A stretch of DNA of 30,325 nt from the UHGV virus genome UHGV-0061407; one strand, written 5' to 3'. The notes under the pieces are model-generated. The model had not been told where the DNA came from. It saw only the letters and a program-made list of their open reading frames with translations, and ran no database searches. The DNA comes from a virus. This document shows, one piece after another, positions 8,405 to 13,276 of the stretch; the first letter of the stretch is position 1; every line of letters begins with the position of its first letter. The position numbers and the translations under genes are program-made.

Positions 8405-8943
8405 AGGCTCACCCGCTCTTTAACCCAGCCGTATAGAAACGCTTCGTTAGCCGGCCTCGCTTCGGCCAACTCAAGATAGCGAGCCCCCTGGCTGCAATTC
8501 AGCGCCTTTAGCAGCGTGGCTTCGCCATCTTTGCCACGAACGGCGAGATAACTTTTCAGGGCGGCGATGGTGAGATTGCCGATCGCGCCGTCCGTCTTCA
8601 GATCCGGATATAGCTTGCCCTGCATATTCAACGCCGTTAACCAGCGCTGCAGGAATGTACTGGCGACACGTGGCCCCATGTTCACGCCAGTATCACACAA
8701 TTCCTGTGCAATGGCTGGCGACAACTCGGCGATGCAGTCAAACTTCGGTTCTGTCCAGTATTGCGACAGATAAATTGCTTTGGCTGTATCCCGTGGTAAC
8801 GCCTTCATATCGCCGCTATAGCCATATGCGCGGGCGGTAGTCTGCGTGATACCCCAGCGCGTTGGGCCGCCTTTATCATTCGGGTTATTTACGTAACCCC
8901 CTTCTTTACCGAGGATGCCCTCGATAATCTGATCTGCTGTCAT
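8401..8943 (-). CDS. Endolysin, glycoside hydrolase family 108-like with C-terminal peptidoglycan-binding region
   Basis: 180 aa; N-terminal motif EGGYVNNPNDKGGPTRWGIT characteristic of GH108 phage lysozymes; flanked by holin and spanins. Confidence 0.85.
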   Translation of the reverse strand: MTADQIIEGILGKEGGYVNNPNDKGGPTRWGITQTTARAYGYSGDMKALPRDTAKAIYLSQYWTEPKFDCIAELSPAIAQELCDTGVNMGPRVASTFLQRWLTALNMQGKLYPDLKTDGAIGNLTIAALKSYLAVRGKDGEATLLKALNCSQGARYLELAEARPANEAFLYGWVKERVSL

Positions 8944-9251
8944 GGCTCCTTAACTCCGGTAATGCGCTCCCAGAAATAGGTCAAAGCAACAGAACCCATT
9001 GCCCCGCTAATTCCGGAAGTGGCCAGTATCATGTAAATGCTCAATCCGCTTTCAATGCTCACCAGGCCAGCAATAACGCCGGTAAACCCTGAAACCACCA
9101 TTTGGGCAAGAGCATTGATCAAGCTCCATGTTGCCTTGCTCTGCTTCACATCTATCAGGTAGCGGACAAGTCCACCCCAGCAAGCAATGATCAGCAGAAC
9201 CAGCCAGGACATCCCGGCAATGCTCTCTTTGTCTTGCATACGTTTAGCCAT
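8940..9251 (-). CDS. Holin (putative, 3 TM segments)
   Basis: 103 aa hydrophobic protein immediately upstream of endolysin with 4-nt overlap; GGAGG RBS upstream of ATG. Confidence 0.6.
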   Translation of the reverse strand: MAKRMQDKESIAGMSWLVLLIIACWGGLVRYLIDVKQSKATWSLINALAQMVVSGFTGVIAGLVSIESGLSIYMILATSGISGAMGSVALTYFWERITGVKEP

Positions 9252-9365
9252 AGTTACCGCCTCCGATGAAAGATCGGGAAGCTGTGTGTTTGAAAGGGGT
9301 CAGGCCCGTCAGGCTGGATTTAACAACGAAGCGTGTCGATGATGATTCCTGCGGGACCTGATAAT

Positions 9366-9389
9366 AAAAAAGCCATGCAAATGCATGGC
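9366..9389 (-). terminator. Intrinsic terminator (minus strand): gccatgca-aa-tgcatggc followed by U-run
   Basis: Perfect 8-bp stem 9372-9379/9382-9389; plus-strand A-run 9366-9371 gives a T-run on the minus strand. Confidence 0.45.
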
Positions 9390-9493
9390 CTTGTGATTTG
9401 AATCCGTTATTTACAAAATGTATTCGAGACAGTATCTTTCGACTTCCGGACAAAAAAACATATACCGGGACAAAATCTAAATGTAACTGCCTT

Positions 9494-9554
9494 GCCTGCA
9501 TGAAACCATGCGGGCTTTTTTTTTGCCCAAAGAAAAAGCCCACCGAAGTGGGCC
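9494..9554. terminator. Back-to-back terminator hairpins (plus-strand hairpin + T9; minus-strand hairpin ggcccac-uucg-gugggc + U5)
   Basis: Plus: stem 9494-9502/9507-9515 (one G-U), loop aaac, T-run 9516-9524. Minus: stem 9538-9543/9548-9553 with UUCG-type loop, followed by T-run (complement of 9531-9537). Confidence 0.5.
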
Positions 9555-9927
9555 TTACAGCTATCATCATTTTTTATTAGGTGTGGTGCCGGGTGCCTCC
9601 CGGTAAGTCGCCGCCAGTCCACAGACGACTCGCAATGCGCAAAAAAACATATCAGACTGGCAATGCCCCTCCGCATAGGGGGATTCACCACACGGATAAT
9701 TTAGGATGTAGTCATAGGCGGCGTCAATAACTGACACTCTGTCAAAGGCACCATTACGATGCCTTTTGCACAGTGCTAATCACTGGCTCTAATAAGGGGC
9801 CAGAGCAAAGCGATTACCCCGGCTACCAGCACTCCATCAGCCAGGATTGACATCATTTTGCTGGTGAAGTCGATAGCAACCACCAGAAACAAAAGCACCC
9901 CAGCTGCGGCCCAGCGAAGTTTACCGA

Positions 9928-10353
9928 TCACAGGTACTGGTCTAGTGGAAGTTGCAGAGCCTGGGCAATTTTCTTCAGCTGTTTCTCTTCTTCTTCCCCG
10001 ATGCCGTCGTTATCAGCTACATCAAGACACAGGCAAAGAACATCGACAGCGTCATCCGTCCCGGCAACATCAGCCAGTTCGCGCAGCGCCTGAGCGTTGG
10101 CTGAACGCGGTGATGCTTCATAGCGAGCGCGAATATTCGAACTCATCTGGGCAATTTCACCAGCAAATGGCGCGAATGCCGGGAGGGCCGAAATAGTCTT
10201 CTCCAGCACTGCAATCTCTTTTGCATCGCAGGTACCATCGGCGTATGCAATCGAGTACGCTCCCCAGACCGTGGCTTCTACGGCATCGCGGTTTTCCATT
10301 TTTTTCACTTCAACAACGGCTTTACGGGCTTTCTTTTTAAAAATACCAAACAT
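9928..10353 (-). CDS. TerB-like (tellurite-resistance TerB family) protein
   Basis: 141 aa; two repeats of the TerB-like pattern (AYADGTCDAKEIAVL and LDVADNDGIGEEEEKQLKKIAQAL) matching what I recall of TerB (a.aDG...eE...l..ia..l). Confidence 0.6.
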   Translation of the reverse strand: MFGIFKKKARKAVVEVKKMENRDAVEATVWGAYSIAYADGTCDAKEIAVLEKTISALPAFAPFAGEIAQMSSNIRARYEASPRSANAQALRELADVAGTDDAVDVLCLCLDVADNDGIGEEEEKQLKKIAQALQLPLDQYL

Positions 10354-10485
10354 AGTGACTTTCCTTTTAGCGGGTGAGCCAGCGCTCAGGAATGATCAGC
10401 CCACAGAGACAGTCACACTGACTATTCCCTATGGCTCACCCCTGAAAGGCTCTGTGGTTAAATAACGCCGAGCGTGGCGCAGATA

Positions 10486-10510
10486 CGAAAAAGGCCCGCG
10501 TATGCGAGCC
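10486..10510 (-). terminator. Terminator-like hairpin downstream of the methyltransferase gene
   Basis: 7-bp stem with one mismatch (10493-10499/10504-10510) followed on the minus strand by a T-run (complement of 10486-10491). Confidence 0.3.
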
Positions 10511-10796
10511 TGGTGGATCCGCTTACTGATACGGAGCGACCAACCTAAGTTGTCGTAGATTCAAATTGTGGCCCTGCTTTTAAGTCACTTTGCGGTCAGC
10601 TGGGACATGTAAGTTACGCATTGTGATCGGGATTCGCTTCAGACGCTGGCCCCGCAGCCATATAAGTGCCGGTTACGGTTCCGGCCAGGTCTCTTCCTCA
10701 ACAGGTTATTCTCCATACGGATTACCGTTTGTTGGTCGTTCCAGCGATCTCAATTTTCCGGTTACGTTTATCCGGCGGCTTACGCCCGGTTAAGCC

Positions 10797-11876
10797 CTAA
10801 GGTAAGGGATTTGGTTGTGGTGGCCGGTGCTCCAGCAAATTACGCATTTCACTGACCGTCTGTTCAAATCTCTCGGTTTCCAGTTCGACACCTAGCCCCC
10901 TTCGCCCGAGAAGAGCAGCCTGCTTGAGCGTTGAGCCTGATCCAAAAAAGAAATCAGCTACAACATCACCCGGGCGGCTACTCGCTGTGATTATCTGCTC
11001 CAGCATATCCGCAGGCTTTTCACATGGGTGTTTACCTGGATAAAACTGAACAGGCTTATGAGTCCAGACGTCGGTATATGGCACCGTGACTGATACGCTG
11101 AATGGTCGCCGTAAACGGTAATATTCCTGCTGGAGTTCAGAATATTTTCGGCTTAACGATTGCCAGGTGGCGACAAGCTGGTGGTGAGGTTTTCCCAGTT
11201 CGTTGCGCGAGTGCTTATCCATGGCGATTTTTTGAAACAAAGCCTGCAACTTTAAATAATCGGCTTCGTTCGGTAGCTGCCACTGACTAAGGCCAAACCA
11301 GTGGGAAACCATATTTTTCTTACCTGTGGCTTCTGCAATCTGAGCCGACGTCACGCCAAGAGATTCCCGTGCATCACGGAAGTAAGAAATTAAAGGCGTC
11401 ATGACGTGTTGCTTTAACTCATTACACTTTGCGGCATATCCATCGTCTTTGGGCCTGTATGGCCCCTGATAATGGTCGGCAAAAATGATACGCTCAGTGG
11501 CAGGGAAATAAGCGCGTAAGCTCTCCTTATTGCAGCCGTTCCATCGCCCTGATGGCTTAGCCCAGATGATATGGTTGAGCAGGTTAAACCGCTCTCTCAC
11601 CAACAGCTCAATATCCGCTGCCAGGCGGTGCCCACAGAACAGATACATGCTGCCGGCAGGTTTTAACACTCGCCAGAACTGTGCCAGACAGCTATCCAGC
11701 CAACGTAAATAGTCTTCGTCCCCCTTCCATTGGTTATCCCAGCCGTTTGGCTTCACCTTAAAATAAGGCGGATCGGTAACAATAAGATCAATGGAGTTAT
11801 CGGGTAGCGATGGGAGGTATTGCAGGCAATCAGCATTGATTAAATCAATACTGGATATTTTTACAGTATTTTTCAT
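10797..11876 (-). CDS. Orphan DNA methyltransferase, beta-class amino-MTase (N6-adenine or N4-cytosine)
   Basis: 359 aa; motif IV DPPY (LIVTDPPYF) near N-terminus and AdoMet motif I (DFFFGSGST) near C-terminus, the order typical of beta-class MTases; no adjacent restriction endonuclease ORF. Confidence 0.85.
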   Translation of the reverse strand: MKNTVKISSIDLINADCLQYLPSLPDNSIDLIVTDPPYFKVKPNGWDNQWKGDEDYLRWLDSCLAQFWRVLKPAGSMYLFCGHRLAADIELLVRERFNLLNHIIWAKPSGRWNGCNKESLRAYFPATERIIFADHYQGPYRPKDDGYAAKCNELKQHVMTPLISYFRDARESLGVTSAQIAEATGKKNMVSHWFGLSQWQLPNEADYLKLQALFQKIAMDKHSRNELGKPHHQLVATWQSLSRKYSELQQEYYRLRRPFSVSVTVPYTDVWTHKPVQFYPGKHPCEKPADMLEQIITASSRPGDVVADFFFGSGSTLKQAALLGRRGLGVELETERFEQTVSEMRNLLEHRPPQPNPLP

Positions 11877-12025
11877 AGATCAGTAAGCGTAACTCTGATA
11901 GGCTCACTTTGCTTTTGCGCTAAAGCAGTGGGCCGTGGTTAGCTTGTGACCTGAAAGCATGAGCTGATGGCTGGCCGGGTGCTACAACACCCACCAGCCG
12001 CCCATTTTCACAGCAAAAGCCCCCA

Positions 12026-12217
12026 TTACTGGAGGCGCTTATAACATCCGAACTGATAATCAGATAACCCCGCCATTACCAGCTGCGTAAGTATGAACTG
12101 GCAGCGTTCGCGGCTCAGGTGAGTATTCTGAGCAATCTCCCAAGCCGTAGCCGGTTTGTTACTTAACTCATCAAAAACAGCCTTGGCTGTTTCCGTCATA
12201 TCTTGCTGATTTAGCAT
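12026..12217 (-). CDS. Hypothetical small protein (possible winged-helix)
   Basis: 63 aa from internal ATG with GAGG RBS (track ORF 12026..12277 begins upstream of this); first gene after the tR'-like terminator. Confidence 0.4.
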   Translation of the reverse strand: MLNQQDMTETAKAVFDELSNKPATAWEIAQNTHLSRERCQFILTQLVMAGLSDYQFGCYKRLQ

Positions 12218-12320
12218 GTCTTTTACCTCAAATAAGTTGCGTGACATACAGATAACTCTGGTGACGGTATCCAGCAAGAAGTAATTGAAAGAGAAGAAGA
12301 TTTTATCGATTTTAGCCCAT

Positions 12321-12345
12321 AAAAAAACCCGCTCGCTGGCGGGTT
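12321..12345 (-). terminator. tR'-like intrinsic terminator immediately downstream of the Q-dependent promoter
   Basis: Minus-strand hairpin cccgc-cagcga-gcggg (extended by A-U pairs) followed by U7 (plus-strand A7 at 12321-12327). Confidence 0.55.
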
Positions 12346-12370
12346 AATCAACGTTGAACATACAAAGCCC

Positions 12371-12411
12371 ATCGTTATAAATAAAATTACACAAAAGCGG
12401 CAACTTTGCAA
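12371..12411 (-). promoter_or_regulatory. pR'-like late promoter with sigma-dependent pause element (qut-like region)
   Basis: Minus strand: -35 TTGCAA (12406-12411), 16-nt spacer, -10 TAATTT (12384-12389), then AACGATGGG (12368-12376), which matches the pause-inducing AACGATGGG motif I recall from lambda pR'; located within 60 nt of the Q stop codon. Confidence 0.5.
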
Positions 12412-12427
12412 GTAACGTGTCGCTAAA

Positions 12428-13276
12428 TTATGCGATATTTATCAAATCAGACACCTTTGTCACACGTTTAAGCTGTGAGTCGGTATAACTCTCTTCCTCA
12501 AAGCATTTTGTAACCAGACTTTCATAGAAAGGTTTCCAGCTATATCGCCAGGTACGTTCTGGCAGACCAGGCAGCTCAGAGAGCATGCCCCTGTATGCAT
12601 TCGAAGACTTAGGACGACTGTAACCGCGGCCTTCACAACGTTTACATATTTTGTAGACAGGCACTCCCTGCAGCTCTGACTCTTTACGGTCCAGGGTTTT
12701 TCCCGTACCGCCACACTGACATCGCTTGCTGATTTTCCCGGTGCCGCCGCATTTGAAGCAGAGAACATGGTCAACCTCTTCCACCTGACGTTTTACTTCA
12801 AAATCCGAAGGTGACTGCCTGAGGTCTTTTGCCCATTGCGGTAATCTCATTGTGTAGTGGCTTTTTTCCACCATTGAGGTTTTTTTTATGAAGCCTGAAC
12901 CAGAACACTTCCGGCAATCTACGCTGTCAGCTGCAGACGAGGCATAGTCGTTATAAGCGAACCGAGCTATTATCAGCATACACAGCGGGAACTTCTTCCC
13001 TGCTGCTTTTCTTATCGAACGAGGCGCTTTTGATTTTGCATATTCAGCCAACCAACTGACGGATGCCTTTCTGTCATGTTCGCTGATTCCAGCTTTACCC
13101 AAAAACATTGACAGGCCTATTCCTGCCTCTGCCTGTGTCATCCCCAGAGCCGCCATTACATCTGTCACAGTAAGTTGCTCGCTGGCGGTTGCACGACCGC
13201 TATCGGAAATATGCATTCCTTTGGGCGCGAAAAATTTGGGAATTGATTCAATATTCATGCTCAGTACTCCATACAC
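12428..13276 (-). CDS. Q: Late-gene antiterminator Q (lambda-Q family)
   Basis: 282 aa; segments read as clearly related to lambda Q as I recall it: GRATASEQLTVTDVMAALGM; ARFAYNDYASSAA; zinc-finger-like CRKCSGSG and CKRCEGRGYSRP; C-terminal PERTWRYSWKPFYESLVTKCFEEES. Confidence 0.85.
   Translation of the reverse strand: MYGVLSMNIESIPKFFAPKGMHISDSGRATASEQLTVTDVMAALGMTQAEAGIGLSMFLGKAGISEHDRKASVSWLAEYAKSKAPRSIRKAAGKKFPLCMLIIARFAYNDYASSAADSVDCRKCSGSGFIKKTSMVEKSHYTMRLPQWAKDLRQSPSDFEVKRQVEEVDHVLCFKCGGTGKISKRCQCGGTGKTLDRKESELQGVPVYKICKRCEGRGYSRPKSSNAYRGMLSELPGLPERTWRYSWKPFYESLVTKCFEEESYTDSQLKRVTKVSDLINIA

Follow-up and report, generated by a model that had tools for sequence, protein, structure and literature searches.

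Does a phage gene predicted to encode a TerB-like protein really belong to the TerB family and, if so, in which phase of the phage life cycle would its product act? This question was raised by an open reading frame in the UHGV virus genome UHGV-0061407, whose sequence of 30,325 nucleotides was analysed throughout and is here called the window. The original prediction described the gene as a stand-alone TerB copy lying downstream of the late promoter pR′, an arrangement regarded as unusual in a prophage; modulation of host stress, superinfection exclusion and anti-defence were suggested as possible roles. The assignment to TerB stood, and so did, by inference, the position behind pR′, but neither "stand-alone" nor "unusual" could be maintained. 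The gene is called tciA in the following, and the features of its locus are collected in Table 1.

Table 1. Features of the tciA region and its surroundings in the window (leader elements without coordinates are listed under the leader).
Feature	Position	Strand	Description
LydA-type holin gene, first lysis gene	8940..9251	minus	PHROG 785, E 2e-39; Pfam Phage_holin_3_3
STnc100-family sRNA gene	9525..9722	minus	Rfam RF02076, 99.8 bits vs gathering 47
tciB	9776..9931	minus	51 codons; GTG start; two hydrophobic helices
tciA	9928..10353	minus	single ORF with ATG start, 141 aa and TGA stop; TerB-family
tciA 5′ leader, ~130 nt	10351..10484	minus	conserved, structured
Leader, P0 hairpin			GCGCC/GGCGU
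Leader, helix P1			CCACAGAG/CUCUGUGG
Leader, helix P2			GGGUGAGCC/GGCUCACCC; crosses P1; mostly invariant
Leader, remaining parts			inner hairpin; Shine-Dalgarno AAGGA; AGUCAC spacer before AUG
Terminator-like hairpin and T-run	10492..10511	minus	terminator scan; immediately 5′ of leader
N6/N4 DNA methyltransferase gene	10797..11876	minus	orphan-looking
PHROG 331 small ORF	12026-12277	minus	weak winged-helix matches; another terminator after the ORF
tR′-like intrinsic terminator	12318..12345	minus	terminator scan: AACCCGCCAGCGAGCGGGTT then TTTTTTATGGG
Lambda-like pR′	12368..12411	minus	−35 TTGCAA (12411-12406), −10 TAATTT (12389-12384)
Pause-type motif AACGATGGG	12376-12368	minus	downstream of the pR′-like −10
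Antiterminator Q gene	12428..13276	minus	lambda-Q family with an extra Cys-rich insert

The absence of a significant Pfam TerB match had been named in advance as the result that would speak against the prediction; such a match was found instead, since the PF05099 profile aligned with two stretches of TciA at 30.0 bits, above the gathering cut-off of 24.4 (E 7.1e-07). Moreover, PHROG 632 ("tellurite resistance") matched the protein end to end (E 3.6e-64). A family alignment was built from 73 full-length relatives with 30–67% identity, taken from an exhaustive search, and its profile aligned over positions 7-143 with positions 12-149 of the NMR structure 2JXU, the TerB of K. pneumoniae (E 5.5e-27), followed among solved structures by 2OU3 and 2H5N. 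The single TciA sequence gave no match when solved structures were searched with phmmer. Because of these significant profile matches we count TciA, as judged from its sequence, as a bona fide TerB-family member with duplicated acidic motifs.

The two internal repeats that had been noticed by eye were confirmed by independent comparisons. They correspond to two acidic "ADG....E...L" repeats, AYADGTCDAKEIAVLEKTISAL and VADNDGIGEEEEKQLKKIAQAL, and when residues 1-71 and 72-141 were scanned separately, both hit one and the same part (positions 60-109) of the 118-position TerB profile, with E-values of 4.5e-4 and 0.038, respectively, each half alone being below the Pfam threshold. In the 73-member alignment, G40, E46, G117 and E122 are the sole nearly invariant columns, and they occupy equivalent positions of the two repeats. 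A profile–profile comparison of the N-terminal and C-terminal halves of the alignment by hhalign aligned 22-55 with 99-131 (probability 94%, E 1.4e-7), which places the internal repeat beyond chance.

An AlphaFold2 model computed on the family alignment reached a pLDDT of 92.5 and showed six helices, so the predicted fold is all-alpha and TerB-like; a Foldseek search of the PDB returned just one relevant match, a weak one. The N-terminus of TciA is lysine-rich and amphipathic, with a net charge of +6 over 18 residues and a hydrophobic moment of ~0.5, and it would suit peripheral membrane binding. Centrin and troponin C appeared in the searches only at E 0.04–0.3, which is a resemblance of acidic loops and not EF-hand membership.

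tciA is not a stand-alone gene, as had been proposed, but is translationally coupled to a second one: the tciA stop codon and the GTG start codon of tciB overlap as GTGA, and tciB is translated by coupling to the tciA stop codon. The product of tciB, whose hydropathy profile has two peaks, matched PHROG 1470 "TciB-like" (E 2.8e-22) and Pfam DUF3927 (51.6 bits vs 25), and it is 44.7% identical to TciB of phage P1 (E 2.3e-9). The arrangement is widely kept, as tciB lies directly 3′ of the TerB gene in 78 of 80 related viral loci, with the same overlap in 72 of these 78. A single database protein of 196 aa (P0095) consists of a P1-like TciA fused in frame to TciB/DUF3927 at the overlap; this singleton may be a real fusion or an assembly error or sequencing frameshift. 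As for a counterpart of tciC, the best tblastn match of P1 TciC in the window had an E-value of 0.33 and was not at the tci locus.

The gene is not unusual in prophages either. TciA is 84.4% identical over all 141 residues to the product of P1 tciA, annotated in 2004, and an identical copy is present in Klebsiella phage Kp4866-6. A translated search of deposited phage genomes for TciA gave 82 records; relatives of three family members are encoded by 459, 316 and 105 viral contigs, the first figure being that for close relatives of TciA. A large protein search with TciA yielded over 200 clusters, whose sources include Klebsiella, Escherichia, Enterobacter, Salmonella, Yersinia and Pantoea and which carry the existing names "TerB family" or "tellurite/colicin resistance protein"; more distant copies turned up in Salmonella phages of the N4-like type, in jumbo phages of Erwinia and in phages of Pseudomonas and Vibrio. 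The presence of TerB in Klebsiella prophages has already been pointed out (PMC7371120), and a 2026 preprint notes that TerB is conserved next to sRNAs of prophages in pathogenic E. coli. TciA is, in short, a known and widely annotated phage family, and its finding is in itself ordinary.

Regarding the time of expression, the surroundings of the module are informative. The Q gene matched PHROG 127 (E 1.3e-95) and Pfam Antiterm PF03589 (E 1.5e-45), and its product is 31% identical to lambda Q (E 1e-39). At 282 aa, compared to 207 in lambda, it has ~70 extra residues in the form of an insert; this insert contains further CxxC motifs and produces a weak DnaJ_CXXCXGXG match. The pR′ of lambda reads TTGACT..TAAATT..AACGATGGG, and when the site of the window was aligned with lambda and a Klebsiella phage, its −10 element was likewise seen to be followed by these nine bases. 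The motif is responsible in lambda for the sigma70-dependent pause, the point where Q loads. The constitutive transcript expected from the pR′-like site, ending at the strong tR′-like terminator, would be only ~55–60 nt long.

The tciAB genes lie between Q/pR′/tR′ and the lysis cassette and on the same strand; the LydA-type holin gene marks the downstream end of this cargo slot, with GH108 endolysin and spanin genes beyond it. The position downstream of pR′ was thus recovered by inference from the Q gene, the lambda-like promoter with its pause motif, the terminator and the common strand. The order Q, tRNA genes where present, tciA-tciB and lysis genes recurs in E. coli UMNK88, CharmingMan and JLK-2012, and of 55 related viral loci with a Q gene, 30 have the tciA start ~283 nt after Q, so that tciA is the first gene behind tR′ there. 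The methyltransferase gene and the PHROG 331 ORF form an insertion between tR′ and the tci module, and were found in 11 and 9 of 80 loci, respectively.

Immediately 5′ of the tciA leader, where the window has a terminator-like hairpin, CharmingMan and UMNK88 have a terminator with a different stem at the same place. No sigma70-like promoter reached the scan threshold on the minus strand between 10354 and 10800, in a scan that is a simple consensus match and may let a weak promoter escape. A promoter inside the leader was considered and rejected, the candidate hexamers being poor and not conserved. With no promoter of its own found, tciAB falls outside the strict definition of a moron, which has both its own promoter and its own terminator. 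Since a terminator lies upstream, no own promoter was found and the genes stand on the late strand behind Q/pR′, late, Q-dependent expression of tciAB is the best reading of the sequence; read-through of tR′ or an unrecognised promoter could also express the genes in lysogens.

Downstream, a gap of only ~50 nt separates tciB from the STnc100 gene, which follows the tci module in 46 of 80 related viral loci compared by blastn; STnc100 has been related to the EPEC sRNA PasD in the 2026 preprint. The sRNA gene has its own lambda-pR′-like promoter site, TTGACG-18-TAAATT (9727-9698), and a terminator at 9556-9535. We asked whether this site could be the true late promoter, which would put tciAB upstream of pR′, and rejected it because a closer pR′ look-alike with AACGATGGG lies directly after Q and because tciA usually stands ~283 nt after Q. 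Between STnc100 and the holin gene (9252-9524), terminator-like hairpins were observed at 9392-9369 (minus strand) and 9494-9515 (plus strand), together with a sub-threshold match to a Leu leader at 9365-9492 (E 0.005); the ORFs of this region (e.g., 9244..9570, 108 aa) had no family match and are probably not genes. Upstream of tciA, two non-coding remnants were observed: 10665-10746 is 91% identical to the part of the P1 plp region between tRNA-Thr and tciA, and 10610-10678 matches sequence flanking tRNA-Thr of Klebsiella phage ST974-OXA48phi18.2 (87% identity). ARAGORN found no tRNA gene in the window, where only these flanking remnants are present.

The conserved RNA leader in front of tciA is a less ordinary item than TciA itself. 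It is nearly invariant in three otherwise different phage contexts in which the tciA coding sequence is 86% identical, and it is ~90% conserved also 5′ of TerB proteins only ~40% identical to TciA. In one genome, the leader stands in front of an unrelated secreted protein, and remote copies, which scored 19–24 bits with nhmmer and E 1e-5 to 1e-13 with covariance models, precede HNH endonucleases and unassigned proteins located after the lysis genes of the same phages. The leader covariance model (R1) gave 145.7 bits at the single copy in the window; of 5426 complete E. coli genomes, 940 have the leader, the median number of copies being three, and no annotated feature covers it.

The leader was also compared with known RNAs. 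Rfam gave no match to it at E≤1 in the region 9200-12500, nor at the gathering threshold in the whole window, and its identification with a known RNA was rejected, as none of the Rfam families, ribozymes and riboswitches included, matches. A full-text literature search with six leader sequence strings found nothing. The 2026 preprint places PasA/PasC next to a holin gene and PasD2 next to an esterase gene; from this placement, we judged it unlikely that the leader corresponds to PasA/PasC.

Two views of the leader were weighed against each other. In the first, which we put forward tentatively, as a possibility rather than an expectation, it belongs to an undescribed class of structured cis-regulatory RNAs, used modularly before unrelated genes (TerB, HNH endonucleases, a secreted protein and others). 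In the second, which we consider unlikely, it is a recombination linker at lambdoid module boundaries and not a functional RNA. The leader does mark precisely where nucleotide similarity ends between phages that otherwise differ, and in the loci L012-L016 a junction falls inside it: at about position 2816 of these loci, the first ~45 nt, corresponding to P0 and the 5′ strand of P1, are joined to a different downstream gene, an arrangement that suggests recombination junctions within the leader. On the other hand, compensatory changes, which a linker does not predict, were observed. When 27 variants were aligned by plain MAFFT, pairing in the proposed helices amounted to 87.5%, compared to at most 45% with slid partners, and 13 pairs changed on both sides, compared to 5.1 ± 1.6 in shuffles, none of 500 of which reached the observed value; every slid control was thus exceeded as well. 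In a model-guided alignment of 46 distinct sequences, which leans towards the proposed structure, all 8 pairs of P1 showed compensatory changes and 92.6% of the cells were paired, and at least eight different P1 sequences remain complementary.

As P1 crosses P2, the leader RNA would have to form a pseudoknot or to switch between alternative folds. The energies calculated for the nested conformers allow for alternative states without being decisive; the minimum-free-energy fold of the leader alone had a modest z of −2.4 against shuffles and differs from the helices that covariation supports. One loop contains the segment GUGACU, the complement of the spacer that separates the Shine-Dalgarno sequence from the AUG. 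This anti-RBS pairing (P4) covaries in the leader types A, L012, L027b and L105b and is absent from the "type D" copies, and its per-sequence shuffle p-values were weak (0.05–0.65); P4 is therefore kept only as a hypothesis. Overall, the leader is a probable structured control element for the translation or processing of late-operon cargo.

What the module does for the phage is a separate question, and no functional experiment on a phage TerB, TciA or TciB came up in a literature search. CRISPRi has shown that P1 tciA, tciB and tciC are non-essential for plaque formation (PMC10695390), and this dispensability fits accessory cargo. No PADLOC-DB 2.0 defence model matched TerB or TciB at E≤1. The interpretation to which we give about an even chance is that tciAB is a P1-type cargo module of a lambdoid Klebsiella prophage, acting as an inner-membrane module in lytic growth; the identity and the operon position of the module are near-certain, and its physiological role is much less so. 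TciA would be a soluble, all-helical protein of TerB fold and TciB a hairpin of two membrane helices, both made mainly when Q-modified RNA polymerase reads through, i.e., in lytic growth, with the conserved leader probably gating the translation of tciA. As suggested by the coupling of the genes and by the one singleton fusion, TciB may tether TciA to the inner membrane on its cytoplasmic side. There, the acidic repeats of TciA might bind a cation or a membrane partner, as is supposed for TerB with TerC. In this way TciAB could protect or condition the membrane during virion production, acting on membrane or ion homeostasis; excluding the DNA of superinfecting phages, protecting against pore-forming colicins and ensuring the correct timing of lysis are candidate roles.

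The last of these roles can be stated as an explanation of its own, in which TciB works with or against the holin and TciA is its cytoplasmic regulator, sensing ions or membrane potential. In lambdoid phages the lysis cassette follows directly on tciAB, and the size and topology of TciB are like those of small holin- or antiholin-like proteins. However, TciB matches no holin family, the tci module occurs together with holins of at least three unrelated types and P1 has its tciABC genes in an early operon beside ban, a long way from lydA/lydB/lyz. We regard a dedicated function in lysis timing as quite unlikely.

Even less probable, in our view, is lysogenic conversion, in which TerB expressed in the lysogen would give the host resistance to tellurite or oxidative stress. 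TciA is homologous to TerB of terZABCDEF, and databases name its family "tellurite resistance"; on the other hand, no other ter gene is near tciA, whose neighbours are Q, the winged-helix-like ORF, the methyltransferase, TciB, STnc100, holin and endolysin genes, and tciAB has terminators upstream and no own promoter. For the classical phenotypes concerning tellurite, phages and colicins, the entire ter cluster is required. Plain tellurite resistance by tciAB is thus unlikely, because the rest of the cluster is absent, and the name "tellurite resistance" is probably misleading for the TciA family. The authors of a paper on another phage TerB also doubted its activity without the other Tel genes (PMC8421299). 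Furthermore, the P1 tci genes belong to a repressor-controlled lytic operon, and control by the lytic cycle in both P1 and lambdoid phages argues for a role in phage growth over lysogenic conversion. A takeover function, in which TciAB blocks cell division or another host process during infection, has just as little likelihood: cell division is the third meaning of the P1 name tci in the annotation, a dicF-like region lies in the same P1 operon and the PHROG class is "moron, auxiliary metabolic gene and host takeover", yet the "tellurite/colicin/cell division" label of P1 tci was given by homology only, from phenotypes of the whole plasmid ter cluster, and nothing in the sequence of TciAB points to a division target.

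Returning to tciAB as lytic-growth cargo, the present analysis adds that TciA is half of a coupled pair of a TerB protein and a membrane peptide, and that, in the late operons of lambdoid phages, tciAB typically comes before all other genes after tR′, in the slot that carries stx in Shiga-toxin phages. If the leader proves to be a functional switch, it would offer a handle on the silencing and activation of prophage cargo at a medically important position and would also represent a new family of RNAs, carried by roughly one in six complete E. coli genomes.

Among known systems, the TerB of Klebsiella (2JXU) is like TciA in its full-length profile homology, similar size, duplicated motif and all-helical structure, although pairwise similarity is below what phmmer detects. 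Its gene context is different: TerZ, TerA, TerC, TerD, TerE and TerF of the ter cluster are absent here, and where the cluster supplies the multi-pass TerC as partner, TciA has a 51-aa DUF3927 protein. Compared to the TerB-like domain of DjlA, 2H5N (PG1108) and 2OU3 (COG3793), TciA has neither a J-domain nor a fused transmembrane segment, and sequence similarity is marginal. As for the leader, it shares with pseudoknotted riboregulators and with the nested double pseudoknots of HDV-like RNAs the order P1-5′, P2-5′, hairpin, P1-3′ and P2-3′ and, like pseudoknotted translational riboregulators, it has a loop that complements the spacer separating the Shine-Dalgarno sequence from the AUG. No HDV-like Rfam model matches it at E≤1, and its spacer lengths and first P1 pair presumably do not fit the HDV-like consensus.

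The closest relative is P1 itself. Both parts of a P1-type tci module, a TciA orthologue and a coupled TciB/DUF3927 gene, are present here, with the same gene order and the same overlap of stop and start codons as in P1; the plp-region remnant lies upstream in the same order as in P1, and both phages have a DNA methyltransferase gene upstream. The differences are that P1 has tciC, whereas the present locus has no TciC homologue, that the P1 genes follow tRNA genes in the C1-operator-controlled ban operon, whereas those described here are in a lambda-type, Q-dependent late operon, and that the structured leader is missing from P1, where upl/plp stand in its place on the opposite strand. In contrast to classical morons, which have their own promoter, tciAB has none. 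In its location, the module is comparable to the cargo of lambdoid phages in general, for which expression is likewise expected to depend on Q read-through and which often has tRNA genes just upstream, as in JLK-2012 and, with a tRNA-Thr gene, in a related Klebsiella phage. In particular, tciAB has the same position, between Q/pR′ and the lysis genes, and the same strand as stx in Shiga-toxin phages; the product of stx is a secreted toxin, whereas that of tciAB would be a pair of intracellular and membrane proteins.
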